From Candidatus Moraniibacteriota bacterium (lineage in GTDB: Bacteria > Patescibacteriota > Minisyncoccia > Moranbacterales > UBA2206), in assembly GCA_049303795.1 (NCBI GenBank), contig JBAQNM010000013.1:2784-66783 (forward strand): 64,000 nucleotides of DNA, read 5' to 3'. Below are positions 2,152 through 20,332 of this stretch, piece by piece. Positions within the stretch are counted from its first letter, which is position 1, and each line of letters opens with the position of its first letter. Under the pieces are notes generated by a model. The model was not told where the DNA came from, ran no database searches, and worked only from the letters and a program-made list of their open reading frames with translations. A program made the translations under genes and the position numbers.

Positions 2152-2168
2152 AAATTTATTAAAATAAG

Positions 2169-2534
2169 ATGTTTATTAAAAAAAGAATCAGAAAACTGAG
2201 GGATGGCAAAAAATCTTTTTTCTATCAAGCAGTTCAGAGTAAAAGAATTGATGGCAAGGTTGTGAAAAAAGTTATTTCTTTGGGCGAATATCCGTCTATT
2301 GAAGAAGCGATAAAGTGGGAGTTAAAAGTTTTACGGAGAATTGAGCAAAGCGTGAATTATCCCATTACTGAATATAAGGAAGTCAGACATTCTGTCAGAT
2401 ATAATAAGCCTGTGGTTGTTACTCTACCAGTTAAAACTGCTGAAAAGAGAAGGCAATGGTGGCTTAATAAATTTGAAGAACAAAAGGAGAGAATTGCTAA
2501 ACTTAGAAAATGGGAGTCTAGATACTGTCGTTAA
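2169..2534 (+). CDS. Hypothetical basic protein
   Basis: 121-aa ORF in operon-like spacing. Confidence 0.4.
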   Translation: MFIKKRIRKLRDGKKSFFYQAVQSKRIDGKVVKKVISLGEYPSIEEAIKWELKVLRRIEQSVNYPITEYKEVRHSVRYNKPVVVTLPVKTAEKRRQWWLNKFEEQKERIAKLRKWESRYCR

Positions 2535-2600
2535 CTAGTATAAAAAAGTAACCACAAAGATTGGGAGTAAGGAGTAATTAATTAACTAATTTAAAAAATT

Positions 2601-2861
2601 ATGACGAACAATAAAAATAAAACATTCGAAGAAAAAATAAAAGAGGCTGACATTAAAGTTATAAATCGTAAACTCTCACAAGAATTCATTTCACTTTTTG
2701 AAGAGCAAAAACAATTGCTCTTAGAAGTAGAAAGAGTATTCAAGGAAAAATATAATATCTCCGGGCGTGGGAGAATAATTGCAATTTTATGTAGGTATGT
2801 TCTTTCAGAAATTGAAAGTGAATCAGAGATATTGGAGGTAAAAGAAAAAGATGGCAAGTAA
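2601..2861 (+). CDS. Hypothetical small protein
   Basis: 86-aa ORF; its stop overlaps the start of the next gene. Confidence 0.3.
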   Translation: MTNNKNKTFEEKIKEADIKVINRKLSQEFISLFEEQKQLLLEVERVFKEKYNISGRGRIIAILCRYVLSEIESESEILEVKEKDGK

Positions 2862-3909
2862 TTTAAAAATCTTTGATGCGACCCTACCATTTCTGGGAGG
2901 CAAACGCCGAATGGCGGAAGAAATTGCGAGTCATTTTCAAGGAGAAACACTGTGCGATGTTTTTATGGGTGGTGGCTCTATTTCGTTGAAAGCCAAACAG
3001 AAAGGGCTCAGAGTCTTGGCAAATGATATTGCCTACAGAAGTAAAATAGTTGGCGATTCACTCGTTGCCAATAACACCGCTAGGCTGACAGATGAAGATG
3101 TGTGCAGTTTATTTATCCCAAACGAAAATGATAACTTTATCAGCAAAAACTATGTCCCAAAAATATTCATTCCTAGTGTGGCAGAATTTCTGGATACTGC
3201 GTTTACTAACGCTAGAAAAAAGACTGGTATAAAAAAAGAGTTGTCTGTACTTCTACTTTCAAAGTTTATCTTATCCCTTCGCCAATACGGAGCGTTTCAG
3301 GTTGGCAGGCAAGATAATGAGATGCTAATCGAAAATAGGGAGATTGAACTTTTGGAATTAGCCAGTGAGTCACGGGGTAAGAAAATCAAATACAATATGG
3401 CACATCCATTGCCATCGCTTCTCAATTTGAAAGACCAAATCAATAGCGGAATTTTCAATAATGGCAAAGACAATGAAATGCATCAAATGGACTGCTTTGA
3501 TTTCCTTCAACTAATGAAGGATAGGGGCGAAGTTATAGACACGGCATATTTTGATTCTCCATATTTTAACAGCACAAAATACTCTGACCATTACAAAGTG
3601 CTGGATGAAATATTGGAAGGAAAAACTGGCATTGAAATAGCAGATAAAGCATTCAATACCAAAGATGTTATGGAAAATTTTGAAAAACTTTTCTTGTTTT
3701 CAAAATTTATTCCTAAGTGGATAATTTCGATGGGATATAATCCTTCGTCTGACGCAGGCATAAAAGGAGAAGAATTATTGCGAGTGGTTCAAAAATTTAG
3801 AGAAGCAGATTTATATTTTATGGAACACGCTTGGGCGATAAATAATATTGCATCAAAAAACGGCAAGAGGCAAAGTGAAAATGTAGAATATTTAATCGTA
3901 ACAAAATAA
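2851..3909 (+). CDS. DNA N6-adenine methyltransferase, D12/Dam-like; orphan, phage-type
   Basis: N-terminal FxGxG-like SAM motif (VFMGGGS) and DPPY-type motif (DSPY) in Dam order. Confidence 0.7.
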   Translation: MASNLKIFDATLPFLGGKRRMAEEIASHFQGETLCDVFMGGGSISLKAKQKGLRVLANDIAYRSKIVGDSLVANNTARLTDEDVCSLFIPNENDNFISKNYVPKIFIPSVAEFLDTAFTNARKKTGIKKELSVLLLSKFILSLRQYGAFQVGRQDNEMLIENREIELLELASESRGKKIKYNMAHPLPSLLNLKDQINSGIFNNGKDNEMHQMDCFDFLQLMKDRGEVIDTAYFDSPYFNSTKYSDHYKVLDEILEGKTGIEIADKAFNTKDVMENFEKLFLFSKFIPKWIISMGYNPSSDAGIKGEELLRVVQKFREADLYFMEHAWAINNIASKNGKRQSENVEYLIVTK

Positions 3910-3913
3910 CATT

Positions 3914-4534
3914 ATGAGTAAAGAAAAAATATATTCAGAAATACAAATGGTTGACCCACTGAAAGTTAACCCGAATAAATACAATCCAAATCTTATGACT
4001 GAAATTCAGTTTGCAGGCTTAGTGGCGGACTTTGAGGAAAACGGTTGGATAGGACAGCCAGTTGTGGTAAATAATAAGTTTGAAATTATAGATGGTTTCC
4101 ACAGATGGAAAGCCAGTATGAAATTAGGCTTTGAAAAAATACCAGTGGTCGTGTTCCAGCCTGAAAATGAAGAGCACCAGAAAATTGTAACGATAGCATT
4201 GAATTCTAAGCGAGGCGAAATGAATCCACTAAAACTGGCAGGACTTATCTCAGAACTCAATCAGAAATATACACTAGAAGAATTATCAACCAAACTGGGC
4301 TTTGGAGTAGCTGATTTGAAAGACAAGCTGGCTCTCACGCAAGTGACTGCGGAGTTTATAGAAAAACTAAAAAAAGATGCTGAGAATAGAGAAAAAGAAA
4401 TTCCAACAGTAATGAATTTTGCTGTATCCAAAGAGCAGGAAAAAATCATCAACGAGGCATTAGCAAGAGTGAAGGGAAAGAGTAGGGGTGAGAAATTATA
4501 TTCACTATGCTCAGTTTATCTAAAGCAAAAATAA
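3914..4534 (+). CDS. ParB-like nuclease domain protein
   Basis: ParB N-terminal-domain signature IIDGFHRWKA (GxHR box); 206 aa. Confidence 0.7.
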   Translation: MSKEKIYSEIQMVDPLKVNPNKYNPNLMTEIQFAGLVADFEENGWIGQPVVVNNKFEIIDGFHRWKASMKLGFEKIPVVVFQPENEEHQKIVTIALNSKRGEMNPLKLAGLISELNQKYTLEELSTKLGFGVADLKDKLALTQVTAEFIEKLKKDAENREKEIPTVMNFAVSKEQEKIINEALARVKGKSRGEKLYSLCSVYLKQK

Positions 4535-4538
4535 GAAA

Positions 4539-5135
4539 ATGGCAAGATATAAGTCAAAATCAAAAACTGCAGGTTATAATTTCAGCGAAGAAGGAATAGA
4601 AGCAGTAAAAAAGAATCTTAATGTGCAAAGAAAGCACGGAGCGTTTGAGTTTTTCAGAACCAATGTCGCACCAGTTCCTAGTTGCAACCAATGCGTTTTT
4701 GCATCCGATTGTGAGTATTTCAAAAAAGAGCAAAAACAGTGTCGAGCTATTTTGGAACTGCAGGAAGAAATATATAATGAAATATTTGATTTGGATTATA
4801 TTAAGCCCATCGATAAATTTATAGTGGATAGATTTGTGAAAAACTTCTGTTTCCTTGTAATCATTGAACGCTGGGTGGCGAATGTCGGTCCGTTTCACAT
4901 CAAAGACTCAGGATTGGATGTTCAGCCCATATTGGCGATGAAGACCAGCTACGAGCGTCTGGTGTTGAAACAGGCGGAAGCATTAGGCATCGGCCCACAG
5001 GCAAGAGCGAGATTAAATTTAACCAATGTGCAGTCATTTTGTTTTGCGGAAGCTCTGCAACGAGCAAGGCCAATAAACAATCAGACTGCCAAAGTTATTA
5101 TCCAAGACGATGAAGACACAATCGATAACAACTGA
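4539..5135 (+). CDS. Phage terminase small subunit (P27-family-like)
   Basis: Lies immediately upstream of and overlapping the large-terminase gene; LGIGPQARARLNL resembles the P27-family signature. Confidence 0.5.
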   Translation: MARYKSKSKTAGYNFSEEGIEAVKKNLNVQRKHGAFEFFRTNVAPVPSCNQCVFASDCEYFKKEQKQCRAILELQEEIYNEIFDLDYIKPIDKFIVDRFVKNFCFLVIIERWVANVGPFHIKDSGLDVQPILAMKTSYERLVLKQAEALGIGPQARARLNLTNVQSFCFAEALQRARPINNQTAKVIIQDDEDTIDNN

Positions 5136-6648
5136 AAAGTTAATTGAATATCAACGCGACATTTGTGTATTTTTGGAAGAGCAATATTTTTTGGATAATG
5201 GAAAAGCAATAATATTAGAGCCGATTCAAAGAAAAATTCTAAATGATATATTTCAGACCAAGGATAAAAATGGACTGAGAGTATATAATGATGCCCTCGT
5301 TGGAATGATTAAAAAATCAGGAAAATCCAGCTTAGCTTCAGGTGTGGCGTTGTATATGCTTTTTTGTGATGAAATATTTGATGAACCAAACAATGTCTAT
5401 TCGATTGCGTATTCGCAAGACCAAGCCTCTATCATTTGGGAAAAAACTAAAAAGGCTATTGAGCGAAATCCAATCCTATTAGACAGTGTTCAAATATATC
5501 GAGATAAAATTGTCGTTCCCAGCACAGGTAGTATTTATAAAGTATTAAGTGCGGAAAGTTTTTCAGCTCACGGACTTGACCCTAGTTGTGTAATAGGCGA
5601 TGAGATTTGGAATCAAAAAAATCGTGACTTGCTGGACGCCTTGCAATTCTCGCCAACCAGAAAGCAACCGCTCCGCTTTATAGTAACCTACGCTGGAACG
5701 AATACCGTGACACCATTATACGAACTTTATGAAAAAGGGCTGAATAAGGAAAATCCAAAAATGTATTTTCATTGGTCACATAAACCTGAAGTCAGTTGGA
5801 TAACAAAAGAATTTATAGAAGAGAGAAGGCGGGAATTACCGCCAGCGGTGTTTCAAAGGTTTTGGGAAAACAAATGGAGCTCTGGCGAAAATTCTTTTTT
5901 TACCAGAGAGGATGTAATGCAATGTCGGGATGAATTTTTAAAGCCAAAATTCAAAGGCGAAGAGGATGATGAATACTATTATGGATGTGACCTCGGTTTG
6001 GTTAAGGACCGCACAGTTAGCGTCATACTTCATCAGGACAAAAAATCTGGCATTGTTATTGTGGATGATATTAAGACTTGGTCGGGGAGTAAAAATGACC
6101 CAGTGAAGATTGCTGATATTGAAGAAGATATGTTGCTAGCCACCAAAAATTTTCCAAAATTGCACATCGTGGTAGACCCGTGGAATCTTAAGGGAACGAT
6201 TGAAAGACTAAAAAGATATTGCAAGATTGAGGAATTTACATTCAGCAGTTCTAATGTAGAAAAACTCAGTCGTAATTTATATTACTTCATCCACAACGGA
6301 CTGGTGAAATTTTTTCCACATAAACAACTGGAAAGAGAATTGCTTTCATTGAATCTGGAACAGAAAAGTTATGGCTATCGCTTTGACCACCCCAGTTCGC
6401 AGTATTCAGACCACGCAATGGCCTTGTCAGTGGCGTTGATGCAAATCTCGGGGGCGAGAAGAGCAGACGCAGGTTTTGTAATAACAGGAGCGCCGACATT
6501 GGAAAAATTCCAAGAGCAATTGAAAGCGGAACAGTTGCTAAGAATGGGAATAGTTGAAATTAAAGAGGAAAAGAATCAAGAGAGTATTAAACCTAAAAAC
6601 AATTTTCCCACGCTTAAAGAACTTGAAGAGTGGCGAAAGTCTCAATAA
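5110..6648 (+). CDS. Phage terminase large subunit
   Basis: Walker-A-like GMIKKSGKSS; 512 aa with ATPase-plus-nuclease layout; overlaps the upstream small-subunit gene. Confidence 0.8.
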   Translation: MKTQSITTEKLIEYQRDICVFLEEQYFLDNGKAIILEPIQRKILNDIFQTKDKNGLRVYNDALVGMIKKSGKSSLASGVALYMLFCDEIFDEPNNVYSIAYSQDQASIIWEKTKKAIERNPILLDSVQIYRDKIVVPSTGSIYKVLSAESFSAHGLDPSCVIGDEIWNQKNRDLLDALQFSPTRKQPLRFIVTYAGTNTVTPLYELYEKGLNKENPKMYFHWSHKPEVSWITKEFIEERRRELPPAVFQRFWENKWSSGENSFFTREDVMQCRDEFLKPKFKGEEDDEYYYGCDLGLVKDRTVSVILHQDKKSGIVIVDDIKTWSGSKNDPVKIADIEEDMLLATKNFPKLHIVVDPWNLKGTIERLKRYCKIEEFTFSSSNVEKLSRNLYYFIHNGLVKFFPHKQLERELLSLNLEQKSYGYRFDHPSSQYSDHAMALSVALMQISGARRADAGFVITGAPTLEKFQEQLKAEQLLRMGIVEIKEEKNQESIKPKNNFPTLKELEEWRKSQ

Positions 6649-6773
6649 TTATGAGTGAAATATTTTTTCTAATTTACAGTATATGTCTATCTATTTTAAT
6701 TTTTAATCTCATTTTTTAAATGTTCCCATAATGTATGTTTTCGGAAGTTTTTAATTTGTAATAAATCAATAAT

Positions 6774-7253
6774 ATGACAGTAAAAATTAAGTTTTTAAAT
6801 TCGGTTGGGCAGGAGAGGTTTTTGCATAATTTGGTGAATGCTAAAAAGAGAAACCTAAACTATAAACATTTGTATCATAGACTTATCAATGAAGCTAAAG
6901 ATAAAGTATCTTTTCACATCAGCGATGAAAACAATAATGCGGTTGTTTTTTGTGAGATAAATTTTTATCCCGCTGAGAATCTGGTGGACATTGAATGTCA
7001 GCCTTGCGATTTTGGTAAACTACAATCATTTCTAATATTTGATTTGTTGGAATCCATCAATGAGAAAGCCGTGGCTAGATTTATTGATGAGAAATTTTAC
7101 TTTGATGGCAGTGTGGATTTCTATATTTTGATTGATGGAAAAAAAGAGATAATCCGCAAAGTTTCTTCAGATAGGGAAAATTTATTGGAAGTGACAAATG
7201 CCAGAATTATCGGGCAAGTTATGGTTGAAATTAAGGCACTTGACTTGATTTAG
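6774..7253 (+). CDS. Hypothetical protein
   Basis: 159-aa ORF between terminase and integrase. Confidence 0.4.
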   Translation: MTVKIKFLNSVGQERFLHNLVNAKKRNLNYKHLYHRLINEAKDKVSFHISDENNNAVVFCEINFYPAENLVDIECQPCDFGKLQSFLIFDLLESINEKAVARFIDEKFYFDGSVDFYILIDGKKEIIRKVSSDRENLLEVTNARIIGQVMVEIKALDLI

Positions 7254-7267
7254 GATACGAAGGTAAT

Positions 7268-8158
7268 GTGTGTCACAATGAAGTAAAGAGGCACACAAAA
7301 ATGCATAGGTATATAAAAAAATATATAGAATATCTTCGCATCGAAAAAGGATTGAGCGAAAATACGATTGAGATTTATACTAGGGACCTTTTGGAATTCG
7401 GAAAATTTATAAAAAAGTTATCGTTTAATAAATTGGCAAGGACTCACATTCGTGAGTTTCTTTGCTTTTTAGTAGAGAAAAACAATCAGCCGATAACTAG
7501 AAGAAGAAAAATGACATCAATTAAAAACTTCTTTGAATTTTTGGAGAATGAGGATTTGATAAAAAACAGTCCAGTTAAAAATATTGCAACATTAAAAGTT
7601 AAAGAAAATGAACCAAGTTATTTGACTGAACAGGAATTGAAAAAGTTAATCAAGGTTGTCAGTGAAGACAAATCTAAACATCAAGAAAGAAACAAATTGA
7701 TGATAAAGATTTTGATTGAAACAGGCATCAGAATTTCAGAGCTAACAAATTTAAGTGTTGGAGATATCGATACTAAATCTAGGATAATAATAGTCAAAAG
7801 AAAGGGTGGTCAAAAACAAAGCATTCCAATAAATATTGAGTTGGCGAAAAATATTAAGCAGTTGGCTAAAAATAAAGAAATATCTGAACCATTGTTTATG
7901 AGCAGTTTTAAAAAGAGAATTACACAAAGAAGAGTAGGGATGCTGGTTCAAAAATATCTGAAGCTAACAAGAATAACCAAACTGAATATTTCAGTCCATA
8001 GCTTACGTCATAGTTTTTGCTCGAGGTTATTGGAAAAAGGCGTGAATCTGAAAACGATTCAAATATTGGCTGGACACAAAAATATTTCGACTACTGAAAG
8101 ATATTTGCATATAGCCAAATCACGGCTCAGAAAGGAGGTGAGGCTGGCGGAAATTTGA
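7268..8158 (+). CDS. Tyrosine recombinase/integrase (XerC/D family)
   Basis: C-terminal catalytic box HSLRHSFCSRLLEKGVNLKTIQILAGHKNISTTERYLH (R..HxxR..Y). Confidence 0.85.
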   Translation: MCHNEVKRHTKMHRYIKKYIEYLRIEKGLSENTIEIYTRDLLEFGKFIKKLSFNKLARTHIREFLCFLVEKNNQPITRRRKMTSIKNFFEFLENEDLIKNSPVKNIATLKVKENEPSYLTEQELKKLIKVVSEDKSKHQERNKLMIKILIETGIRISELTNLSVGDIDTKSRIIIVKRKGGQKQSIPINIELAKNIKQLAKNKEISEPLFMSSFKKRITQRRVGMLVQKYLKLTRITKLNISVHSLRHSFCSRLLEKGVNLKTIQILAGHKNISTTERYLHIAKSRLRKEVRLAEI

Positions 8159-8218
8159 AGCACAAATTTGAAGATTGACCAAAGTTCTTTGATAAAGTAA
8201 TATTAAGATAATAAAATA

Positions 8219-8312
8219 CCAGTCGCAAAACCAACTAAGCTCTAAAAAGCTTGGGCTGGTCGTGTATATAAAGGGGCAACTCTGAAAGGTACACGACTGG
8301 TTTTGCGACTGG
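8219..8312. repeat. Nested inverted repeats: 15-bp perfect outer stem (8219-8233 / 8298-8312) enclosing an 8-bp inner stem (8259-8266 / 8290-8297). Candidate att core or structured RNA.
   Basis: CCAGTCGCAAAACCA vs TGGTTTTGCGACTGG and GTCGTGTA vs TACACGAC read directly from the sequence, 60 nt downstream of the integrase. Confidence 0.55.
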
Positions 8313-8320
8313 ACGTCCTG

Positions 8321-8340
8321 TAAGGGGTTGTCCCTTTTTG
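8321..8340 (+). terminator. Short hairpin plus T-run (AAGGG-GTTGT-CCCTT-TTTTG)
   Basis: 5-bp stem followed by TTTTTGTT. Confidence 0.3.
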
Positions 8341-8357
8341 TTATATAAAAAAATAAT

Positions 8358-8813
8358 ATGGAAAATAATAACTGGTCAAAATTAAGTCATCTGCAATTGG
8401 GAAAATACGGCGAGTATTTTGCTAAGATGGAATTTACTAAAGCTGGCTTTGATGTTTATACTTCAGAAGTGGATGACAAAGGAATAGATTTTGTGATTAG
8501 AAAAAACGAAAGCGAGCACTATGACATCCAAGTAAAATCTGTGCGGAATTACAATTATGTCTTTATGCGAAAAGAGGTTTTTACTCTCAGAAGAAACTTT
8601 CTGTTGGCTCTGGTGCTTTTTGAGGAAGGTGAACAGCCGACACTATGTCTCGTGCCATCTTTGGAATGGGAGAAAAAACGAGAAAAATTTTTCAGTGAAA
8701 ATGATTATGAAAATAAAAAGAGCCGACCAGAGTGGGGATTGAAAATATCTAAAAATAATGCAGAAGAGTTTAAGGGTATTTACGAATTTGATAAACAAAT
8801 TGCAAATCTATAA
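8358..8813 (+). CDS. PD-(D/E)xK-like nuclease fold protein (Hjc/restriction-endonuclease-like); tentative
   Basis: GEYFAKMEF ... DDKGIDFVI ... YDIQVKS is arranged like an E...D...(E/Q)xK core; 151 aa. Confidence 0.35.
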   Translation: MENNNWSKLSHLQLGKYGEYFAKMEFTKAGFDVYTSEVDDKGIDFVIRKNESEHYDIQVKSVRNYNYVFMRKEVFTLRRNFLLALVLFEEGEQPTLCLVPSLEWEKKREKFFSENDYENKKSRPEWGLKISKNNAEEFKGIYEFDKQIANL

Positions 8814-8830
8814 TTATTAAAAATAATAAA

Positions 8831-9289
8831 ATGGTGAATCTAATCTGTACGCTCTGCGGATACGCAGGCGAAATGAACAAAAAAGCAAGGGGAAATGGTC
8901 TTGTGGAATTTATCTTATGGTGTTTCTTTCTATTCCCAGGCATCATTTATTCAATCTGGAGCCGAGGGGGCAGTGGAAAAAAAGTTTGTCCAAAATGCGG
9001 AAGCACAACGATGATTCCAACTGACACTCCAATGGGGCAAAAACTGATGGCGGAACAGCGAAACAATCCTGATATTCATATAGAACCGACAAAATCAAAG
9101 GAAACTTCCAAGACGGCATTATATGCAATGTTTGTAGTTTTGGGAATTGTATTTATTTTTGTGATTATTTCATTCTCAACCTACAAGAAAGACGCTGAAA
9201 AAGCAGAAAATGAAATCAAGGCTCAGCAAACAATTCAGCAAAACTTACCAGCAGTTCAAGATGGCTCGCAAAAAACTAAGACTAAATAG
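8831..9289 (+). CDS. LITAF-like zinc-ribbon membrane protein
   Basis: CTLCG knuckle, 20-aa hydrophobic segment, CPKCG knuckle, then a second TM helix. Confidence 0.45.
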   Translation: MVNLICTLCGYAGEMNKKARGNGLVEFILWCFFLFPGIIYSIWSRGGSGKKVCPKCGSTTMIPTDTPMGQKLMAEQRNNPDIHIEPTKSKETSKTALYAMFVVLGIVFIFVIISFSTYKKDAEKAENEIKAQQTIQQNLPAVQDGSQKTKTK

Positions 9290-9297
9290 TATTTTTA

Positions 9298-9328
9298 AAA
9301 CCAGAGCTAAAACCCTGGTTTTTTTTAT
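9298..9328 (+). terminator. Weak intrinsic terminator
   Basis: ACCAGAG..CCCTGGT imperfect stem followed by T8. Confidence 0.4.
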
Positions 9329-9459
9329 GAAGTGGTATTAGTTGCCCAGTCTCAAGGAATAATCGCACACAAGTTAAAATTTGGCTAAATATGGGTATAT
9401 TTAGCTTTACTCAGAGCTTATTTCTTGCTAGAATTGAAGTATAAATAAGGTAAAAATCA

Positions 9460-10800
9460 ATGAAACAAGCAACGGCTCTGGATATTTTGAAATTGGGACA
9501 TAATGTGTTTTTGACGGGTCCTGCAGGAAGTGGAAAAACATATCTATTAAACCAATATATTCAATATCTTAAAAACAAAAAAATAGGAGTAGCGATAACA
9601 GCTTCAACTGGGATTGCTTCGACACATATGAATGGACAAACTATTCATAGCTGGTCAGGAATGGGCATTAAGGATATATTTACCGAAGCGGATTTTTCAA
9701 AACTTAAAAAAAGACATTTCTACACACAACGTCTCAAGAAAACTAAAGTGCTGATAATAGATGAGGTGTCTATGCTTCACGCTCATCAGTTGGACATTGT
9801 GAATAGTATCTGTAAAAGATTCAAAGAACCATTTTTCCCATTTGGAGGATTGCAAGTTATTCTTTGCGGAGATTTTTTTCAATTGCCTCCTGTGGCAAGA
9901 TATGGAAGCAGGGCAAAATTTGTCATTGAATCAAGAGCGTGGGATGAAATGAATTTGAGAATTTGTTATCTAGAAGAACAGCATCGACAAGAAGACAATC
10001 AAATGCTAAAAATCCTAAACGACATCAGAAGCAGGGCTTGCGACAGCGAAACGATGGGGTTGATTCTTTCCAGAGAAAATAAAACTATAAAAAACAACAT
10101 TGCTCCCACGAGATTATATACTCACAATGCTAATGTAGATGCTATCAATGATTTCGAATTGCAAAAAATCAAAGAAGAACCAAAAGAATTTTTAATGACT
10201 TCTACTGGCATAGAAAATTTAGTGACTACGATTAAGCGAGGGTGCCTGGCTCCTGAAAAACTTATTCTCAAAAAAGGTGCAGTGGTGATGTTTGTGAAAA
10301 ATAATTTTGAAAGAGGTTTTGTTAATGGCACACTCGGGGTTGTCACTGATTTTGAGGAAAGTGGATTGCCAATAGTTCGAACACTTTCAGGCAAGATAAT
10401 TGTTGCTACTCCTGAAAAATGGTCTATTGATGAGGATGAAGTTATACTAGCTTCAGTGACACAAGTGCCACTTCGACTAGCGTGGGCAATCACAGTGCAT
10501 AAAAGTCAGGGGATGACACTAGACGCAGTGGAAATGGATTTGAGTAAATCATTTGAATATGGAATGGGTTATGTAGCTTTGTCGAGAGTTAGAAGATTGG
10601 ATGGTATAAAACTGCTAGGCATCAATGAAACTGCCTTAGAAGTTAATCCAGAAATGTGCGAAATGGACAAAGAATTGGAAAGGCTTTCAGATATAAATTC
10701 CAGTGAGATTAGCGCTATGGGATTTTTCGAAAAAAGAAAGAGACAGAAAGAATTCGTGGAAAAGAATGTTGGTAAGAAAGATTTGACTAAAAAAGTATAA
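9460..10800 (+). CDS. Pif1/RecD-like SF1B DNA helicase
   Basis: Walker A TGPAGSGKT, Walker B LIIDEVSML and C-terminal WAITVHKSQGMTLD typical of Pif1/RecD/TraA helicases. Confidence 0.8.
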   Translation: MKQATALDILKLGHNVFLTGPAGSGKTYLLNQYIQYLKNKKIGVAITASTGIASTHMNGQTIHSWSGMGIKDIFTEADFSKLKKRHFYTQRLKKTKVLIIDEVSMLHAHQLDIVNSICKRFKEPFFPFGGLQVILCGDFFQLPPVARYGSRAKFVIESRAWDEMNLRICYLEEQHRQEDNQMLKILNDIRSRACDSETMGLILSRENKTIKNNIAPTRLYTHNANVDAINDFELQKIKEEPKEFLMTSTGIENLVTTIKRGCLAPEKLILKKGAVVMFVKNNFERGFVNGTLGVVTDFEESGLPIVRTLSGKIIVATPEKWSIDEDEVILASVTQVPLRLAWAITVHKSQGMTLDAVEMDLSKSFEYGMGYVALSRVRRLDGIKLLGINETALEVNPEMCEMDKELERLSDINSSEISAMGFFEKRKRQKEFVEKNVGKKDLTKKV

Positions 10801-10857
10801 ATTCTTTACTTTATAGCTGGATGGCGGTATTATAATAATAGAAAAATATATTATCAT

Positions 10858-12354
10858 ATGGAAAAAATAACGCTTTCAGAACTGGAGCAATTTCTCTGGA
10901 AAAGTGCTGATATTCTCCGAGGAAAAATCGACTCCAGCGACTATAAAAAATACATATTTGGTCTGCTTTTCTATAAGCGGATAAATGACGTTTGGGCTGA
11001 AGAGCACGAGGCGTTTTTAAAGGAGTATAAAAATACAGGAGCGGAAGAAGAACCATTCCACCGATTTCAACTTCCTGAAGATGCTAAATGGGAAACGATT
11101 CAAAATGCTTCACAAGAAATTGGAATAAAATTAGACAAGGCTTTTGAAAAACTGACTAATGCTAATAGTCCGAAATTGGACAAGATTTTTGACGACCTTA
11201 ATTTTGCCGATTCAGATAGATTTCCAAATGATGTCATTCAAAAACTTATCAATCACTTCTCTCATTACAATTTCGGAGACACTTATGTGAATTCGGATAT
11301 TTTGGGAGACGCTTATGAATACCTGATTAAGCAATTTGCAGCCGATGCTGGAAAGAAGGGCGGAGAATTTTATACTCCACGAGAAGTTGAGCGTGTAATA
11401 GTTCAAATCTTGAAGCCTCACGAAAAAGACCATATATATGACCCAACTTGTGGCAGTGGAGGATTCCTATTGGAAGCATATCATTACGTTAAGGAAAAAT
11501 ATGGCGACAAGGCGATAAGAAAACTTTATCTCTATGGTCAGGAACTAAACATCGGAACTTATGCCATCGCCAAAATAAATATGTTTTTGCACGGATTGGA
11601 CGGAGCAGACATTAGAAGAGAGGACACATTAAAAGAGCCGTTATTTAAGGATGAGCTGGGAAACTTAAAAACGTTCGACATCGTGGTAGCAAATCCTCCG
11701 TATTCCATCAAAGAGTGGGCGTTTGAAACTTTTGAGGCAGACAAATATGGAAGACGAAATGGCTTCGATATGCCACCCACAAGAAACGCTGATTATGCAT
11801 TTATTTTGCATATGATTGCTTCGCTTAACCAAAACGGCAGGGCAGGTATTGTTCTTCCACACGGAGTGTTGTTTAGAGGCGGAACCGAAGGAAAGATTAG
11901 AAAACAAATAATCGAAAGAGATTTATTAGAGGCGGTAGTGGCATTACCAGTCAAACTTTTCTATGGCACTGGAATTCCAGCGTGCATATTGATTCTTAAT
12001 AAAAACAAGCTAAAAGAACATAAGGATAAGATTTTACTTATTGATGCCGAGAAGGATTATCTGGAGGGTAAAAATCAGAACAGTTTGCGAGAACAGGATA
12101 TTAAAAAAATAGTTAAAGCATTTGATAATTATCAGGACATTGAAAAATATGCAAGAATTATTGGACTGGATGAACTGAAGGAGAATGCTTTTAATCTCAA
12201 TGTTAGGCGGTATATTAAAAATGACGAAGATGAGGAAAAGATTGATGTAAACAAAGTTTGGAAAGAGCTAACAGAATTAGAAGATGAGAAAGATAAGATA
12301 AATAAAGATGTTGCTGGATATATTAAGAACCTTGGCTATCGAAATAATGATTAA
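10858..12354 (+). CDS. hsdM: Type I restriction-modification methyltransferase subunit
   Basis: HsdM N-terminal LWKSADILRG motif and catalytic NPPY (VVANPPYSIK). Confidence 0.9.
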   Translation: MEKITLSELEQFLWKSADILRGKIDSSDYKKYIFGLLFYKRINDVWAEEHEAFLKEYKNTGAEEEPFHRFQLPEDAKWETIQNASQEIGIKLDKAFEKLTNANSPKLDKIFDDLNFADSDRFPNDVIQKLINHFSHYNFGDTYVNSDILGDAYEYLIKQFAADAGKKGGEFYTPREVERVIVQILKPHEKDHIYDPTCGSGGFLLEAYHYVKEKYGDKAIRKLYLYGQELNIGTYAIAKINMFLHGLDGADIRREDTLKEPLFKDELGNLKTFDIVVANPPYSIKEWAFETFEADKYGRRNGFDMPPTRNADYAFILHMIASLNQNGRAGIVLPHGVLFRGGTEGKIRKQIIERDLLEAVVALPVKLFYGTGIPACILILNKNKLKEHKDKILLIDAEKDYLEGKNQNSLREQDIKKIVKAFDNYQDIEKYARIIGLDELKENAFNLNVRRYIKNDEDEEKIDVNKVWKELTELEDEKDKINKDVAGYIKNLGYRNND

Positions 12355-12359
12355 AAGTA

Positions 12360-13601
12360 ATGCAACAAATAAGAGAAAAGTTAAAAAAGGAATGGAAGAA
12401 ATACAAAGTGAAAGAACTTGGGTGTTTGTATGGTGGATTGACTGGCAAAAATAAAGACGATTTTGGTGAGGGTAAAAAGTTTATTCCGTATATGAATGTC
12501 TTTAGAAATAGCAGGATTGATGTTGAGAATATGAGTCTGGTCAAGATAGACGGAAAGGAGAGGCAGAATAAAGCTGTTTATGGTGATATATTTTTCACTG
12601 GGTCATCAGAAACGCCAGAAGATGTTGGAATGAGTTCCGTTCTTTTAGATGAATCTGAGGAGGATGTTTTTTTAAATAGTTTTTGTTTTGGATTGCGATT
12701 GAATAGTTTTGATGTGTTGATGCCAGAGTTTGCTAGATTTTTGTTTCGTTCCCCTGATTTGAGAAAAAAAATATCGCTACTTGCCCAAGGCTCAACCAGG
12801 TTCAATTTATCAAAAAAACACTTTTTAGATATAAATCTGAGTTTACCATCACTAAATGAACAGAAAAAGATTGCTAAAATTTTATTAAGAGTAGATGAGG
12901 ATATTGAAAATGTCGGTAAGACCATAAAGCAAACAATTAAATTGAAAAATGGATTGATGCAGGGGCTATTAACGAAGGGGATAGGACATAAAAAATTTAA
13001 GAAGACAAAATTGGGGATAATTCCAGAAGAATGGGATATCGCTTTGCTCGATTCCGTTGCGAAACGAGGCAGTGGACATACTCCAAGCAAATCAAAACCA
13101 AATTATTGGAACGGAGGTATCAAGTGGGTTTCTTTAGCTGATTCTTCTGAACTGGACAATAGATACATTTGTTCTACCGATAAGGAGATAAGTGAGGATG
13201 GGATAAAAAATTCATCGGCTGTGTTGCATCCAGCAGGAACTGTAATTTTATCTCGTGATGCAGGAGTAGGAAAGAGTGCGGTGTTATCTTGCGAGATGGC
13301 AGTAAGCCAGCATTTTATTGGTTGGCAGTGCGGTGACAGTCTAAGTAATTTCTATTTATATTATTTATTTCAAAATTGGAAGAGCGAGTTTGAAAGGATA
13401 GCCACAGGCACAACTATAAAAACAATAGGGTTGCAGTTTTTCAAAGACTTAAAGGTGCCATTGCCAAGCTATAAAGAGCAAAAAAAAATCGCAGATATTT
13501 TAACAAGAGTTGATGACAAAATCGATGTTTATAAAAGTATTAAATCAAAACTTGAAATTTTGAAAAAGGGATTGATGCAGGATTTATTTGTTAGTGATTA
13601 A
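12360..13601 (+). CDS. hsdS: Type I restriction-modification specificity subunit
   Basis: Two target-recognition domains separated by conserved LPxL.EQKKIA repeats (LPSLNEQKKIAKIL / LPSYKEQKKIADIL). Confidence 0.85.
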   Translation: MQQIREKLKKEWKKYKVKELGCLYGGLTGKNKDDFGEGKKFIPYMNVFRNSRIDVENMSLVKIDGKERQNKAVYGDIFFTGSSETPEDVGMSSVLLDESEEDVFLNSFCFGLRLNSFDVLMPEFARFLFRSPDLRKKISLLAQGSTRFNLSKKHFLDINLSLPSLNEQKKIAKILLRVDEDIENVGKTIKQTIKLKNGLMQGLLTKGIGHKKFKKTKLGIIPEEWDIALLDSVAKRGSGHTPSKSKPNYWNGGIKWVSLADSSELDNRYICSTDKEISEDGIKNSSAVLHPAGTVILSRDAGVGKSAVLSCEMAVSQHFIGWQCGDSLSNFYLYYLFQNWKSEFERIATGTTIKTIGLQFFKDLKVPLPSYKEQKKIADILTRVDDKIDVYKSIKSKLEILKKGLMQDLFVSD

Positions 13602-13606
13602 AAAAT

Positions 13607-14500
13607 ATGTCCATATTGGAAGAACAAATGAATATATGGGCAAAGGCTCCAAGTGAAACGGAGGAAACTAAATGCCAAAATGCGGTTAGTAGGATTACCG
13701 ATACTATAAGAAAGAAATTTGGTAATGATGTTTCTATTTTATTACAGGGTTCTTATAAAAATAGGACTAATGTTAGATTGGATAGTGACGTAGATATAGT
13801 GGTTTCTCATCAAGGACATTTCTTCCCTGGTCTCAGTAATTTATCACCTGCTGATAAGGAAGTTTATCATAGTATATATAAAAACTCAGACTACACATTT
13901 TCCCAGTTCAAGAATGACATTCATATAATTTTACAGGACGAGTTTGATGCTGGAGAGGTTGAGCGAAAAAATAAATGCATAAAAATAAAGGGTAATTCAT
14001 ATAGAGTTAACGCAGATGTTGTTCCTTGCTATCCTCATCGCAGATATAGAAGTGTGAGTGATGTGGAAGTGGAAGGATTTGGGTTCGTTGGTGATGATGG
14101 CGTGACAGTTTATAGTTTTCCAGAACAACATTATGATAATGGAGTGGGCAAAAACAAAGAAACCGAGCAGATGTATAAGTCATTGGTGAGGATATTAAAA
14201 AATGTAAGAAATGATTTGGTAGATAAAGGCATAATCACGCTAGACGATATGCCTTCTTTCTGCTTAGAGTGTCTAGTGTGGAATGTTCCCTCGGAGCATT
14301 TTATAAGGAATAGATATCACGATGCAACACGAATTGTCCTAGCGACTATTTGGAATGAGATGAGGGAATTTGAGAAGTCGAATAATTATGCGGAAGTTAG
14401 TGACTTAAAATGGTTATTTAGGGGGAGCAGTAAAATAACACCCAAGCAAGCTGAAAATTTTATGCAACACGCTTGGGATTACATAGGATATGAAAATTAA
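13607..14500 (+). CDS. cGAS/DncV-like nucleotidyltransferase (CD-NTase, SMODS-type); CBASS cyclase candidate
   Basis: Pol-beta nucleotidyltransferase signature GS-x10-DSDVD (LLQGSYKNRTNVRLDSDVDIVV) plus third acidic residue in the cGAS/OAS-like hDhhP strand (NADVVPCY); 297 aa, typical CD-NTase size. Confidence 0.65.
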   Translation: MSILEEQMNIWAKAPSETEETKCQNAVSRITDTIRKKFGNDVSILLQGSYKNRTNVRLDSDVDIVVSHQGHFFPGLSNLSPADKEVYHSIYKNSDYTFSQFKNDIHIILQDEFDAGEVERKNKCIKIKGNSYRVNADVVPCYPHRRYRSVSDVEVEGFGFVGDDGVTVYSFPEQHYDNGVGKNKETEQMYKSLVRILKNVRNDLVDKGIITLDDMPSFCLECLVWNVPSEHFIRNRYHDATRIVLATIWNEMREFEKSNNYAEVSDLKWLFRGSSKITPKQAENFMQHAWDYIGYEN

Positions 14501-15089
14501 CTCAAACAACTATAAAAAATTTACTTACTTTATTCTAGTTCTTATTGGAATAAGTTCCTTTGTCGTTTACAAAATGTTTGATTTGATAGAAGCAAATAAC
14601 ATAAAAATTCCATTTTATTTTTCCATTCCTTCTATTCCAGCGGTTTATGGTTTACTTTTCTTGGCGTTCGACAGGGTGCTGTGGAAATGGAAAATTTTTA
14701 GGATGCTTGGAATTATTACCGCTGATGATTTGAATGGAGAATGGGAGGGGACTGCCAAATCTTCTTTTGAAGAATTCAAAGAGGAAATAAAGGTTAAACT
14801 AAAAATAAAGCAAACCGCTACAGAAATGACAGTTTATGGTTGTTTTGATAATTCAAAATCAATTAGTCTGAATGCAAATTTTGAGAAAAATGATGTTGAT
14901 GATGGAGTGGCATTATTTTATTTTTATAGAAATCAGCCAGACTATGATGCCAAGGAAACAATGGCAATACACGAAGGTGCTACCAAGTTAATTTATAATA
15001 AACAAGATAATTCCCTGACAGGATTCTACTTCTCTGGAAGAAATAGAAATAATCACGGAACAATCAAGGTGTTTAAGGATAAGAAATAA
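14490..15089 (+). CDS. 2TM beta-rich effector, Cap15/S-2TMbeta-like; CBASS effector candidate
   Basis: Two N-terminal TM helices (FTYFILVLIGISSFVVY, IPAVYGLLFLAF) then a ~120-aa beta-rich soluble domain; start overlaps the cyclase stop by 11 nt. Confidence 0.5.
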   Translation: MKINSNNYKKFTYFILVLIGISSFVVYKMFDLIEANNIKIPFYFSIPSIPAVYGLLFLAFDRVLWKWKIFRMLGIITADDLNGEWEGTAKSSFEEFKEEIKVKLKIKQTATEMTVYGCFDNSKSISLNANFEKNDVDDGVALFYFYRNQPDYDAKETMAIHEGATKLIYNKQDNSLTGFYFSGRNRNNHGTIKVFKDKK

Positions 15090-15093
15090 CATT

Positions 15094-18012
15094 ATGAAAT
15101 TTAACGAACAGCACACCATAGAAAATCACATAATCAAATACTTCAAAAATGACTTGAAGTATGAATACATCAAACCTGAAGAGTTTGCTAAATTCAGGGA
15201 GTTTGAAAATGAATATCTGATTACTCCGCTTCTTCAGGAATCAATCAAAAAACTGAATGGCATTGATGACGATAATCTTGTCCAGCTTCTAACCAAGGAA
15301 CTTAAGAAGATAGACAATAACGAGGAATTTTTGATGGCTCTGCGGAACGGCATAAACTATAAAGACCCAGCGACTGGCAAAAAGACAGACTATAAGGTGG
15401 TTGATTTTGAAAATATAGACAATAACCGTTTTGTCGTTACCAATCAGTTCTATTTTGAAGGCAACGCTGAAAACATCAGACCAGATGTGATGGTATTCGT
15501 TAACGGCATTCCAGTATCTGATATTGAAGCCAAGAGTCCAACAGCATCTATTACAGTCAGCTGGGAGAACGCAGTCGGACAAATCAAGCGGTATGAGAAT
15601 GTTGCTCCAAGGATGTTTATCGCTAACTGTTTCAATGTGGTGACTGACGGAACGGAAAGTGGAACTCGCTATGCTTCTACTCATTCACCGATTCAATACT
15701 TTTTCCAGTGGAAAGACGAAGAGAATAAAGACAAGTTTGAGGGCAATCTGGAGCTGACACTTTGGAATCTATTTAACAAGAAGCAACTTTTGGATATTAT
15801 TCAAAACTTTATTGTCTTTGAGAAAGAAGGTGGAAAAGTAGTTAAGAAAGTTTGTCGCTACCAGCAGTATAGAGCATCCAATAAGATTTTAGACAGAGTT
15901 ATTAAAAACGAGAGCAAGAAAGGACTCGTTTGGCATACTCAAGGCTCTGGAAAATCAATGACGATGTTTTTCACGGCTTGGAAATTGCGTTATGCGAAGG
16001 AGCTGAAGAATCCGAAAGTCTTTATTTTGGTTGACCGCATTGATTTGGATGACCAACTGCACGACACATTCACGGCTTGCGGTGGTAAGAATGTGATGCG
16101 AGTCACTTCCAGAAAAGTTCTGGAAGATAAAATAACCAGCGATGAACGAGGGATATTTATCACAACCATCCAGAAGTTTTCCGAACTTGGGAAAAATATC
16201 GAAAATGAAGATAGTAACATTGTCGTCTTGACTGACGAGGCTCATCGCACCAATGAGGGAATATCAGGAATCAACGCTCGGTCATCACTCAAGAACGCTT
16301 TTTGGTTTGGCTTTACTGGAACACCGATTGATAGGACTACTCTGAACACGCATCGCAATTTTGGCGAGGAAGGGGAGCGGTATTTAGATTATTATTCTAT
16401 CCAGCAAGCGATTGACGATGGGGCGACTTTGCCAGTGTATTTTGAGACTCGCCTGTCCAAGTATTTCATAAACGAGGAAGGGCTGGATGAACAATTCGAT
16501 GAATTAACCAAAGGACTCACTGACAAGCAAAAGGAAGAACTGAAAAAGGCGTATGGCAAAAAAGAAGCGATTGTAAAATTGATTAAAAGGGTAGAAGCCG
16601 TTGCTGTCGATATTGCCGAGCATTACAAGATTTATATTTTGCCGAATAACTTTAAGGCTCAAGTGGTTTGCTATGATAAGGAGGCTTGTTTAATGTATAA
16701 AAAAGCGTTAGACAAGGTTATCCCAGAAAACTGGTCTAAGATAATTTATTCGACTGGGGATTTGAATGTTGAAGCGGATGAAATAAAGAAATACTACACG
16801 ACTAAGGATGAGAGAAAGAAATTCATCGAAGCCTTCAAAGACAAAAATCAAGACCCAAAGATTTTGATTGTCTGCGATATGTTGCTTACTGGATTTGACG
16901 CTCCGATTGAGCAGGTGATGTATTTAGATAAACCGCTTCTTGACCACAGCTTACTTCAAGCTATTGCCAGAACTAACCGAGTTTATCCGAACAAGGGTTG
17001 TGGTAAGGTTATCGACTATTACGGCATAACGAGAAGTTTGGAGAAAGCGTTAGATTTTGACGAGAGCATTATCAATTCCGCAATGATTGATATTGATAGG
17101 CTCAAAGAGCAGTTCCAAGAGAAATTGAAGGATTGTCTAGATATATTTGCTGGAATCAATATCGAAGACCCATCAATGGAGAATCTGCGAAGAAGCCTCC
17201 GCATCTTTGCCGATAACAGGGATAAGCAGAAAATGTTTGAAAATCTGTTCAGCAAAATCAAGCTGATATTTGAAATAATTTCTCCAGACCCATTCTTGAA
17301 GCCGTATGTAAGACAAGTAGAATGGCTCGCCAGTTTTTACATTGCTTATACCAGAGAATTCAAGGCACAAACTGATGAGGAAATCCGAATGGAAGAATAC
17401 GGTGAGAAAATCAAGAAACTTATTCAGGAGAAAATAGACTTGCAGGGAATCATCAGAACTTTCAGAGAAATAAATATAGGAGATTTATATCAAATCAAGC
17501 AATTGGAGAAGATGGAGGATGAAGACAAAGCAAGAGCATTGGAAAAGATGCTTAAGAGTGAAATCTCCATAAATCTGGATACGAATCCGACTTATGACAA
17601 ATTCAGCGAAAGGTTGATGAAAATCAAAAAGGACTTTGAGGATAATCAGATAGATTTGGATAAGAAAATCAAAGAACTTCAGAAATTGAGAGAGGACTTG
17701 GTGGACAAGAGGGATGAAGCCAAAAAACTCGGCTATAACTTGCAGGAATACGGCATTTACGTTATTTCACAGGAATTCATTGAGAATATAGATAGCAAAG
17801 AAACTAAGCCATTTATTCAGGATATGGTTGAGGCGATAACTGATACACTGGACACTGGTTGGCAAGAGTCGTCTAAAAAAGAAGAATTTATCAAGGAAAT
17901 TAGACGTAAATTAACCAAGCTGATTCTCAAGGATTATCAAGAAAAGATTAAGATTAAGGATTTTGCCAAATATCTTAATAGAATTATTGACGTAATCCAA
18001 AGGAAATTTTAA
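15094..18012 (+). CDS. hsdR: Type I restriction enzyme R subunit (SF2 helicase/endonuclease)
   Basis: 972 aa; DEAH-box-like LTDEAHRT and the other helicase motifs; typical HsdR N-terminal region. Confidence 0.9.
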   Translation: MKFNEQHTIENHIIKYFKNDLKYEYIKPEEFAKFREFENEYLITPLLQESIKKLNGIDDDNLVQLLTKELKKIDNNEEFLMALRNGINYKDPATGKKTDYKVVDFENIDNNRFVVTNQFYFEGNAENIRPDVMVFVNGIPVSDIEAKSPTASITVSWENAVGQIKRYENVAPRMFIANCFNVVTDGTESGTRYASTHSPIQYFFQWKDEENKDKFEGNLELTLWNLFNKKQLLDIIQNFIVFEKEGGKVVKKVCRYQQYRASNKILDRVIKNESKKGLVWHTQGSGKSMTMFFTAWKLRYAKELKNPKVFILVDRIDLDDQLHDTFTACGGKNVMRVTSRKVLEDKITSDERGIFITTIQKFSELGKNIENEDSNIVVLTDEAHRTNEGISGINARSSLKNAFWFGFTGTPIDRTTLNTHRNFGEEGERYLDYYSIQQAIDDGATLPVYFETRLSKYFINEEGLDEQFDELTKGLTDKQKEELKKAYGKKEAIVKLIKRVEAVAVDIAEHYKIYILPNNFKAQVVCYDKEACLMYKKALDKVIPENWSKIIYSTGDLNVEADEIKKYYTTKDERKKFIEAFKDKNQDPKILIVCDMLLTGFDAPIEQVMYLDKPLLDHSLLQAIARTNRVYPNKGCGKVIDYYGITRSLEKALDFDESIINSAMIDIDRLKEQFQEKLKDCLDIFAGINIEDPSMENLRRSLRIFADNRDKQKMFENLFSKIKLIFEIISPDPFLKPYVRQVEWLASFYIAYTREFKAQTDEEIRMEEYGEKIKKLIQEKIDLQGIIRTFREINIGDLYQIKQLEKMEDEDKARALEKMLKSEISINLDTNPTYDKFSERLMKIKKDFEDNQIDLDKKIKELQKLREDLVDKRDEAKKLGYNLQEYGIYVISQEFIENIDSKETKPFIQDMVEAITDTLDTGWQESSKKEEFIKEIRRKLTKLILKDYQEKIKIKDFAKYLNRIIDVIQRKF

Positions 18013-18569: not shown

Positions 18570-18573
18570 AAAG

Positions 18574-19335: not shown

Positions 19336-19363
19336 TTTAGAGTAGTCATTTAAGGAGGTTTAA

Positions 19364-19387
19364 AACGGGGAATACCCTGTTTTTTTG
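19364..19387 (+). terminator. Intrinsic terminator
   Basis: CGGGG-AATA-CCCTG hairpin followed by T7. Confidence 0.4.
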
Positions 19388-19436: not shown

Positions 19437-19448
19437 CTAACAATAAAA

Positions 19449-20084: not shown

Positions 20085-20136
20085 ATATCTTCCAGCTGGG
20101 CTGGCTTGATATATATAATCATTAAAGAAAAACCAA

Positions 20137-20259: not shown

Positions 20260-20332
20260 AAAGAGCGACCGAGATTGCTTTGGAAGGTGGTCTCGGTCAC
20301 CCTCTCTAACTAACCTAACTATATCACAAAAA

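Follow-up and report, generated by a model that had tools for sequence, protein, structure and literature searches.

Do a nuclease gene, a membrane-protein gene and a helicase gene that stand side by side at the head of a defence island make up one anti-phage system? The question is raised by positions 8358-10800 of a stretch of 64,000 nucleotides (nt), the whole of which we call the window, from a Candidatus Moraniibacteriota bacterium of the Candidate Phyla Radiation (CPR) (contig JBAQNM010000013.1, assembly GCA_049303795.1). The original prediction, made from the sequence alone, had recognized there a PD-(D/E)xK-like nuclease (gene 1), a LITAF-like zinc-ribbon membrane protein (gene 2) and a Pif1-like helicase (gene 3), and had proposed that they work together as a nuclease-helicase defence module. 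Our check of the open reading frames (ORFs) found all three genes on the + strand, exactly at the coordinates given. The module itself was not borne out: the cassette of gene 1 and gene 2 and the Pif1 gene are two unrelated adjacent units, with a terminator-like hairpin and a separate promoter between them. We consider it likely that the first unit is a toxic nuclease cassette, gated by a leader RNA and carried as cargo by a mobile element, and that it merely lies beside the Pif1 unit. The features of this region (lengths in amino acids, aa) are as follows.

8175..8203, + strand: promoter-like site (TTGACC, 17 nt, TAATAT), conserved in related loci
8218..8343, + strand: structured leader RNA, called class A, with an outer helix, two hairpins, a conserved apical loop GGGGCAAC and an intrinsic terminator
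8358..8813, + strand: gene 1, stand-alone DUF4365/DREN-type PD-(D/E)xK nuclease, 151 aa, assigned by motif, AlphaFold2 model and fold matches
8831..9289, + strand: gene 2, small membrane protein, 152 aa, starting 17 nt after gene 1
9298..9327, + strand: terminator-like hairpin AAAACCAG..CUGGUUUUUUUU closing the gene 1-gene 2 unit, from sequence reading and folding
9374..9434, + strand: promoter-like sites for Pif1, where DNA homology to the nearest relative has just resumed (at 9361)
9460..10800, + strand: gene 3, Pif1-family helicase of superfamily 1B, 446 aa, an independent single-gene unit, assigned by Pfam, structure matches and motifs

To separate the units we rely on two sets of loci, numbered from L001. 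The first comprises 80 species-representative genome loci with gene-1 homologues of 45-93% identity, 67 of them with at least 3 kb downstream, and the second 80 metagenome loci with Pif1 homologues of 52-84% identity, 48 of them with at least 2 kb upstream. A Pif1-like gene lay within 10 kb of a gene-1 homologue in only one of the 80 genome loci (L020, the contig of L001, which is the nearest relative), and neither gene 1 nor gene 2 was present in any of the 80 metagenome loci. Co-occurrence of the trio in other genomes had been named by the original prediction as the check that could refute it, and these counts speak against the trio. Adjacency of all three gene positions is limited to three lineages of Moranbacteria (the window, L001 and L019), each with the same integrase-bearing element upstream of Pif1. 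Moreover, the parts occur in other combinations. L015, L021 and L024 have the integrase, the leader RNA, gene 1, gene 2 or another membrane protein, and then a type III restriction-modification (R-M) system, without Pif1; L012 to L014 have the element upstream of Pif1, with a TM2-domain protein replacing gene 1; and L100 and L104 have the element beside Pif1 without gene 1.

The comparison of the window with L001 at the DNA level gave a mosaic of the same kind. Two segments are conserved, 6202-8845 (from the 3' end of the TerL gene to gene 1) and 9361-10860 (the Pif1 gene together with its promoter); other DNA fills the gene-2 slot and the R-M slot, and the two sequences become homologous again at 18940. 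The breakpoints at 9361 and 10860 tightly bracket Pif1 and its promoter. At the protein level the two loci share 57% identity in TerL against 95% in Pif1, the proteins of the element diverging much faster.

These comparisons bear on the model in which nuclease, membrane protein and Pif1 are one anti-phage system, the helicase translocating on foreign DNA and the nuclease cutting it. Helicase-nuclease pairs are common in defence systems, and here the genes are co-directional and adjacent, sit at the head of an island of R-M and CBASS (cyclic oligonucleotide-based antiphage signalling system) genes, and are adjacent again in L019, as well as in L001 with a different middle gene. This general plausibility is opposed by the co-occurrence counts, by gene 1 without Pif1 (L015, L021, L024), by Pif1 with the element but without gene 1 (L012, L100, L104), and by the terminator-like hairpin and the separate promoter between the units. 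In addition, PADLOC gave generic P-loop or nuclease-core matches only: gene 1 had weak partial matches (PDC-M02A, E 7.6e-5; PDC-S01, E 4.4e-4), and gene 3 matched the helicase core of proteins of 700-1270 aa; HamB, GajB and Nhi were matched over the P-loop only (E 1e-3 to 7e-7). Neither gene belongs to the helicase-nuclease defence systems Hachiman, Gabija, Nhi, AbiO or PDC-M02/PDC-S01/PDC-S68. We regard the one-system model as very improbable.

If gene 1 does not belong to Pif1, what does it encode? The predicted PD-(D/E)xK nuclease stands, both by fold and by motif. An AlphaFold2 model built on 43 homologues reached a pLDDT of 91 and a pTM of 0.86, and its best Foldseek matches in the PDB were DREN domains of SPARDA (DNase-associated short prokaryotic Argonaute) systems (9qcc, 9jt2 and 9jsz; E 6e-4 to 8e-4, probability 1.0). 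Next came archaeal Hjc (2eo0, TM-score 0.56/0.64; 2wcz), EcoRV and I-Ssp6803I, and in BFVD the model matched small phage PD-(D/E)xK proteins and viral Holliday-junction resolvases. These solved structures are tied to gene 1 by fold comparison alone, because a profile search of gene 1 against the PDB sequences found no match. The catalytic motif DxGxD..QxK is present as D40-K-G42-I-D44 ... Q58-V-K60; among the 43 homologues E19, E37, D39, G42, D44, Q58 and K60 are invariant, and D40 is conserved in at least 90%. Many homologues with 52-75% identity have a precomputed match to DUF4365 (PF14280) and bear this name at NCBI. No extra domain is found in gene 1, neither APAZ nor any other, and no Argonaute partner in its neighbourhood. 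The active site is intact, and gene 1 encodes a PD-(D/E)xK protein of the DREN type.

The fold matches also raise the alternative that gene 1 is a recombination accessory of the element, namely an Hjc-like Holliday-junction or structure-specific resolvase acting in partnership with either the integrase or the terminase. Its likeness to archaeal Hjc and to viral resolvases, its size of about 150 aa, which is typical of Hjc, and the repeated adjacency of its homologues to tyrosine and serine recombinases would all fit. Yet the active site is that of DUF4365/Mrr (DxGxD..QxK) and not the E..D..ExK of Hjc, and the best fold matches are the DREN domains. Moreover, no recombinase is adjacent in about 60 of 75 homologue loci, some homologues lie inside R-M operons, and the same integrase occurs without gene 1 in L012, L100 and L104. 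A resolvase is thus quite improbable.

The family of gene 1 is large and widely scattered. At 50% identity it falls into about 1200 clusters, or 169 at E 1e-30, and most members are stand-alone proteins 150-160 aa long. Identity to gene 1 is 84-93% in Moranbacteria, 70% in an uncultured archaeon, 62% in Woesearchaeota and in Methanocrinis, and 58% in Brevibacillus, and homologues at 45-70% identity are scattered over CPR, DPANN, methanogenic archaea, Firmicutes, Proteobacteria and others. The gene is scarce among sequenced phages, with 1 record, and among plasmids, with 4. Its immediate neighbours are very mixed (101 Pfam families among 127 neighbouring proteins), and only two kinds recur: tyrosine recombinases, next to the gene in 12 of 75 loci, and hsdR-like proteins, in 10 loci. 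Two arrangements illustrate this. In L186 the homologue follows a large serine recombinase in an island of about 2.7 kb beside tRNA genes, and in L180 to L185 it is packed within a type III R-M-like operon. As mobile cargo, gene 1 moves with recombinases and R-M operons.

Some details of these two loci are worth recording. The minimal island L186:3392-7069 consists of the large serine recombinase, an RNA of the LOOT family described below, the gene-1 homologue and two ORFs of 70 and 100 aa, with tRNA genes flanking; the 70-aa ORF overlaps the stop codon of the gene-1 homologue by 4 nt. In L180:1-10429 (and likewise in L181 to L185) the homologue, of 75% identity, starts 4 nt after a ResIII/RE_endonuc gene and ends 4 nt before the gene of an uncharacterised 1159-aa protein; this operon also includes DUF3800.

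Such a distribution is what a solitary nuclease with its own specificity might show, either a restriction-type enzyme (Mrr-like type IV, modification-dependent) or a selfish, homing-type endonuclease, with the specificity contained within the 150-aa protein. Patchiness across domains of life is typical of selfish and defence nucleases, and the R-M-enriched neighbourhoods, the sub-threshold matches of gene 1 to Mrr_cat and Mrr_cat_2 and the fold matches to EcoRV and the homing endonuclease I-Ssp6803I (20-24% identity) point the same way. On the other hand, gene 1 has no separate DNA-recognition domain, no intron or intein context was seen, and its conservation across phyla (45-60% identity over the full length) is unusual and atypical of restriction enzymes, which diversify in specificity. 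We therefore consider a solitary endonuclease unlikely.

The nearest characterised relatives of gene 1 are all multidomain proteins: the DREN-APAZ protein of SPARDA, EAT16 and Divona. The DREN domains of SPARDA (NbaSPARDA 9jt2/9jsz, XauSPARDA 9qcc, TmuRE) are of the same PD-(D/E)xK subfamily and share the conserved DxGxD..QxK (PMC10810196; PMC12205087). SPARDA systems consist of a DREN-APAZ fusion beside a short Argonaute, and gene 1 is not one of them: it is the nuclease domain alone, without APAZ and without Argonaute, so that activation through guide-directed filaments is impossible. Unlike in SPARDA, its control appears to be transcriptional, via the leader RNA. The DUF4365 motif is required for the DNase activity of TmuRE (PMC10810196) and for the toxicity of EAT16, a toxin of an extracellular contractile injection system (PMC11297309), and Divona is a DUF4365-containing defence gene in integron cassettes (bioRxiv 10.1101/2024.07.02.601686). 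EAT16 and Divona resemble gene 1 in the use of the DUF4365 domain as a toxic or defensive effector but are multidomain, whereas gene 1 has no added domain, secretion system or integron. Epona, in which an Mrr_cat nuclease is fused to a holin-like domain with two transmembrane (TM) segments (bioRxiv 10.1101/2024.07.02.601686), resembles gene 1 and gene 2 taken jointly, as an Mrr-type nuclease with a small two-helix membrane module. The likeness is one of architecture; Epona is one polypeptide, whereas gene 1 and gene 2 are separate and the gene-2 slot is swapped in relatives. In the literature searched we found no description of a stand-alone DREN form that is mobile with recombinases and controlled by a leader.

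Gene 2 forms a tight pair with gene 1 downstream of the terminator-bearing leader. In its product a split zinc ribbon, with the cysteines C6, C9 ... C53, C56, encloses a conserved hydrophobic helical hairpin (residues 23-46), and residues 94-117 form a second TM helix. The name LITAF-like that it had been given holds for the topology only. As in LITAF (PF10601), two CxxC knuckles lie on either side of a hydrophobic helical hairpin of about 22 residues, with similar spacing. The LITAF motif has a histidine before the second knuckle; gene 2 differs in having a lysine there, an extra C-terminal TM helix and a charged tail, and is a bacterial and very rare protein. The zf-LITAF-like family (PF10601) was weakly matched by 4 of 10 members of the gene-2 family (best E 1.5e-4) and by the window protein not at all at E up to 10, so that LITAF-like is a fair word for its topology and not for membership. 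Pmp3 was weakly matched over the hairpin by all 10 members, and a fold search with the gene-2 model (pLDDT 66) found nothing (best E 2.7). Only 9 homologues were found among 5.8 billion proteins, and a protein with 100% identity to gene 2 bears the annotation of a Candidatus Moraniibacteriota MAG. In every locus examined (L015 to L019 and L021) the homologue directly follows a gene-1 homologue. The gene-2 slot is exchangeable among relatives: it holds unrelated membrane proteins in L001, L002 and L024. The hairpin at 9298-9327 that closes the unit is canonical in form, though its folding energy alone is not significant (z -1.05).

How is the nuclease cassette expressed? The gap of 200 nt between the integrase gene and gene 1 is occupied by the promoter-like site and the leader. 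A GATTGACCAAAGTTCTTT block is invariant in alignment A6 and is present in L180, too. The leader RNA, of about 125 nt, has an outer helix of 15 bp that encloses two hairpins, folds at -57 kcal/mol (z -7.2) and ends with the intrinsic terminator at 8322-8343, whose U-tract ends 14 nt before the ATG of gene 1. Relatives keep this architecture with different helix sequences. A covariance model, R1, built from five leader variants found the leader upstream of gene 1 in L001, L015 to L017, L021, L024 and L190. It also found the leader in L180, which had not been used for model building, before an unrelated gene for a 159-aa membrane protein, 4.3 kb downstream of the gene-1 homologue. In an alignment fitted to the model, 13 of the 29 base pairs show compensatory changes and 97.5% of the cells are paired; none of 500 shuffles and no slid register was comparable. 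No Rfam family matched the window leader even at E 10. Judged by its sequence and covariation, the leader is a candidate new cis-regulatory RNA motif of mobile elements in Moranbacteria. The apical loop GGGGCAAC can pair with the 3' arm GUUGUCCC of the terminator, to which it is complementary, and such pairing may act as an antitermination switch. L024 has a G-to-A change in the loop together with C-to-U changes in both alternative partners; this single event was read from alignment A9.

We also considered layouts in which the RNA would act on the nuclease itself. A type III toxin-antitoxin-like layout (RNA antitoxin with nuclease toxin) was excluded because there are no tandem repeats in 8000-9500; the leader is, moreover, absent from most gene-1 loci. 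An RNA that is an obligate partner of the nuclease was rejected for the same lack of repeats, for the limits of its lineage distribution and for the presence of the same leader before the unrelated membrane-protein gene in L180.

In sister loci the leader slot is held by another RNA. LOOT RNA (RF03000) was found there with 62-90 bits against a gathering score of 46.4, at L019:5350-5521 (89.9 bits), L002:308-444, L003:856-992, L186:4790-4925 and L188:236-371. The related elements that carry it have a recombinase (tyrosine or serine), a promoter, LOOT RNA, followed by a terminator in L019, L002 and L186, and then the gene-1 homologue; in L019 the order is integrase, LOOT, gene 1, gene 2 and Pif1, and a 9-bp terminator lies after LOOT, 20 nt before the ATG of gene 1. 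LOOT and the window leader are alike in occupying the same regulatory slot in related elements. They differ in structure, LOOT having at least four consecutive hairpins where the window leader has an outer helix enclosing two, and neither model recognizes the other RNA: the interval 8150-8370 of the window gave no match to the LOOT model at E up to 10, and the class A model does not match the LOOT loci. Rfam lists LOOT as a small RNA. The layout of the LOOT loci looks cis-regulatory.

The second unit is much more conventional. The predicted Pif1-like helicase is borne out by Pfam PIF1 (PF05970; 134.7 bits, cut-off 25.9), by Pif1_2B_dom (PF21530; 34.9 bits, cut-off 23.9), and by a Walker A motif (GPAGSGKT), DEVSM and the Pif1 signature PFGGLQVILCGDFFQLPPV in its translation. 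It aligns over the full helicase core with the Pif1 structures of human (6hpt), yeast (5o6b), Bacteroides (5ftb/5fhd) and Thermus oshimai (6s3e), at E 1e-72 to 1e-41. Like the Bacteroides and Thermus proteins it is compact and limited to the core, with no notable difference. By E value it is closer to human and yeast PIF1 (1e-72 to 1e-70; human 6hpt 1.4e-72 over residues 3-406) than to those of Bacteroides and Thermus (1e-47 to 1e-41). More than 8000 homologues were found, of which the top 120 are all from CPR and of about 438 aa, and identity drops along taxonomy. Homology of the window to L008, L010 and L100, as to L001, begins a short distance (30-150 nt) upstream of the Pif1 ATG. Among relatives the neighbours of Pif1 include dnaE, dnaG-rpoD, rpoB, mnmA and pth, and also Fic, RadC and TraG-like genes: in L008 an unrelated R-M island and dnaG-rpoD stand on either side of Pif1 (95% identity), and in L010 (88% identity) it adjoins pth. 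No synteny is conserved around it, the largest neighbour cluster covering 7 of 78 loci. Pif1 is conserved through Moranbacteria and Parcubacteria and looks vertically inherited in Patescibacteria. Most likely it is a chromosomal helicase for replication or repair, and it is this housekeeping role that we infer for it.

We propose the following picture. Unit A (8175-9327) is an accessory cassette that an integrative element of a Moraniibacteriota genome carries at its integrase end, made of a promoter, a leader of about 125 nt with an intrinsic terminator, the nuclease and a co-transcribed membrane protein. Gene 1 and gene 2 would be expressed only by read-through of the leader terminator, since the 14 nt between terminator and ATG leave no room for another promoter. 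By analogy with SPARDA and EAT16, gene 1 is probably a non-specific DNase, toxic and conditionally expressed. From these parts we infer a toxic nuclease that is gated by the leader and works for the element: it would either help to maintain the element or defend, through abortive infection or by acting against other mobile elements. Unit B (9361-10860) is the Pif1 helicase with its own promoter, found in many unrelated neighbourhoods. Integrative elements and defence cassettes appear to have been inserted repeatedly beside Pif1, and the region upstream of it is probably a recurrent insertion site.

Several observations weigh against parts of this picture. Gene 1 itself scores only 21.0 bits against Pfam DUF4365 (PF14280; E 3.7e-4), below the cut-off of 24.3 bits, and its Foldseek TM-scores with the SPARDA DREN domains are modest (0.41-0.48). 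The pseudoknot in the leader is suggestive, as it is backed by one covarying lineage, L024. Upstream regions are structured in Moranbacteria-type loci alone (z -4.8 to -8), and z ranges from -2.5 to +2 in the 26 remaining gene-1 loci that have 120 nt or more upstream; because of this confinement, the leader is a regulatory device of the lineage rather than a partner that the nuclease always needs. It could also be a free-standing small RNA. As to Pif1, six lineages have it immediately downstream of this element family, and in each close relative its flanks are different; for these two reasons a mobile Pif1 cassette is a minority possibility. The same holds for the version in which Pif1 is the replication or recombination helicase of the element, and a single element, with defence cargo inside, runs from the primase as far as the Cas4-like gene and the S24 repressor. 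In line with it, Pif1 lies downstream of the element integrase in the window, L001, L019, L100, L104 and L012, it matches phrog_325, a Dda-like helicase (1e-70), and a phage-like Cas4-like nuclease and S24 repressor beyond the R-M cassette are conserved with L001. However, 77 of the 80 metagenome Pif1 loci are without the element, identity falls along taxonomy, dnaE, dnaG-rpoD, rpoB and pth are among the neighbours, and TerL has diverged to 57% where Pif1 is still 95% identical. We consider an element-borne or otherwise mobile Pif1 possible but clearly the lesser option, and a vertically inherited Pif1 beside a mobile nuclease cassette is the picture that we retain.

On its upstream side the cassette adjoins the integrative element. 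The tyrosine integrase, TerL and TerS genes directly upstream of gene 1 had not been mentioned in the original prediction. The features on this side are as follows.

1105-8158: integrative element, with two unknown ORFs, Dam-type methylase, ParB, TerS, TerL, an unknown 159-aa protein and tyrosine integrase
2851-8158: gene order upstream of gene 1, namely Dam-type methylase, ParB, TerS, TerL, 159-aa protein of no assigned function, XerC/D-like tyrosine integrase
7268..8158, + strand: XerC/D-like tyrosine integrase at the right end of the element (Pfam Phage_integrase, 134 bits)

Between TerL and the integrase of the window element there are no capsid, portal or tail genes, and relatives additionally carry PrimPol/DnaB or a Toprim primase; the layout looks satellite-like. 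It recurs upstream of Pif1 in the six lineages named above, and the order of integrase, leader RNA and gene 1 is found again in L001, L015, L019, L021, L024 and L190. A search for direct (att) repeats bounding the window element found no convincing pair, and the window has no tRNA or tmRNA as an integration target. Among IMG/VR viral contigs, searches with TerL and with the leader core sequence found no relative of the element; three exact 18-mer matches to the leader core there are due to chance, because the covariance model rejects them. The scores of the XerD and XerC models for the integrase are under their cut-offs. Integron-integrase models also match it weakly, for which reason we considered the hairpin at 8219-8312 as an integron attC-like site. 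This was rejected, since XerD and XerC outscore the integron-integrase models, attC-like hairpin elements number only one in 6.5-26 kb of the window, and the hairpin comes with a promoter, a terminator and the type of covariation expected for an RNA.

Downstream of Pif1 the defence island continues.

10858-18012: type I R-M operon with CBASS, tightly spaced on one strand, starting 57 nt after the Pif1 stop codon
12360-13601: hsdS
13607-14500: CD-NTase
14490-15089: Cap15 effector with two TM segments
15094-18012: hsdR
18012-25441: YgjP-like metallopeptidase, Cas4-like PDDEXK_1 nuclease, helix-turn-helix S24 (LexA/CI-like) repressor, zinc-ribbon protein, SLFN_AlbA_2 protein, tyrosine recombinase, Fic protein and S51 peptidase

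The CD-NTase and Cap15, a type I CBASS pair, are nested between hsdS and hsdR. The interval between Pif1 and the Cas4-like gene is a variable cassette slot (10860-18940 in the window, L001:11039-16032 in the nearest relative), which is filled by type I R-M with CBASS in the window and by type III-like R-M (N6_N4_Mtase, ResIII) in L001, between flanks that are 88-99% conserved. In L021, L024 and L100 the element has a homologue of the window's second tyrosine recombinase (22638-23618) at its left end.

These results remove a false lead, in that a Pif1 gene beside a nuclease gene at the edge of a defence island is not by itself a system. Pif1 behaves instead as a conserved gene of the lineage that marks an insertion hot spot. 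The cassette of gene 1 and gene 2 is a known kind of effector in a new form, under a leader RNA without an Rfam match. The stand-alone DREN/DUF4365 family of about 150 aa, with about 170 clusters at E 1e-30, moves between bacteria and archaea with recombinases and R-M operons. In SPARDA this effector domain depends on assembly driven by Argonaute, and the question is raised of what controls the stand-alone form. In Moranbacteria this control appears to be a structured leader, plausibly a terminator/antiterminator switch. It is a rather unlikely idea that the class A leader and LOOT are riboswitch-like sensors of an infection or stress signal that release the nuclease by switching the terminator off. 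If so, the integrase end of CPR mobile elements would bear a minimal module for abortive infection or addiction that consists of an RNA sensor plus a nuclease effector, and LOOT would be reassigned from an orphan small RNA to a cis-regulator. Its place in the same regulatory position of sister elements gives LOOT its first testable gene association.

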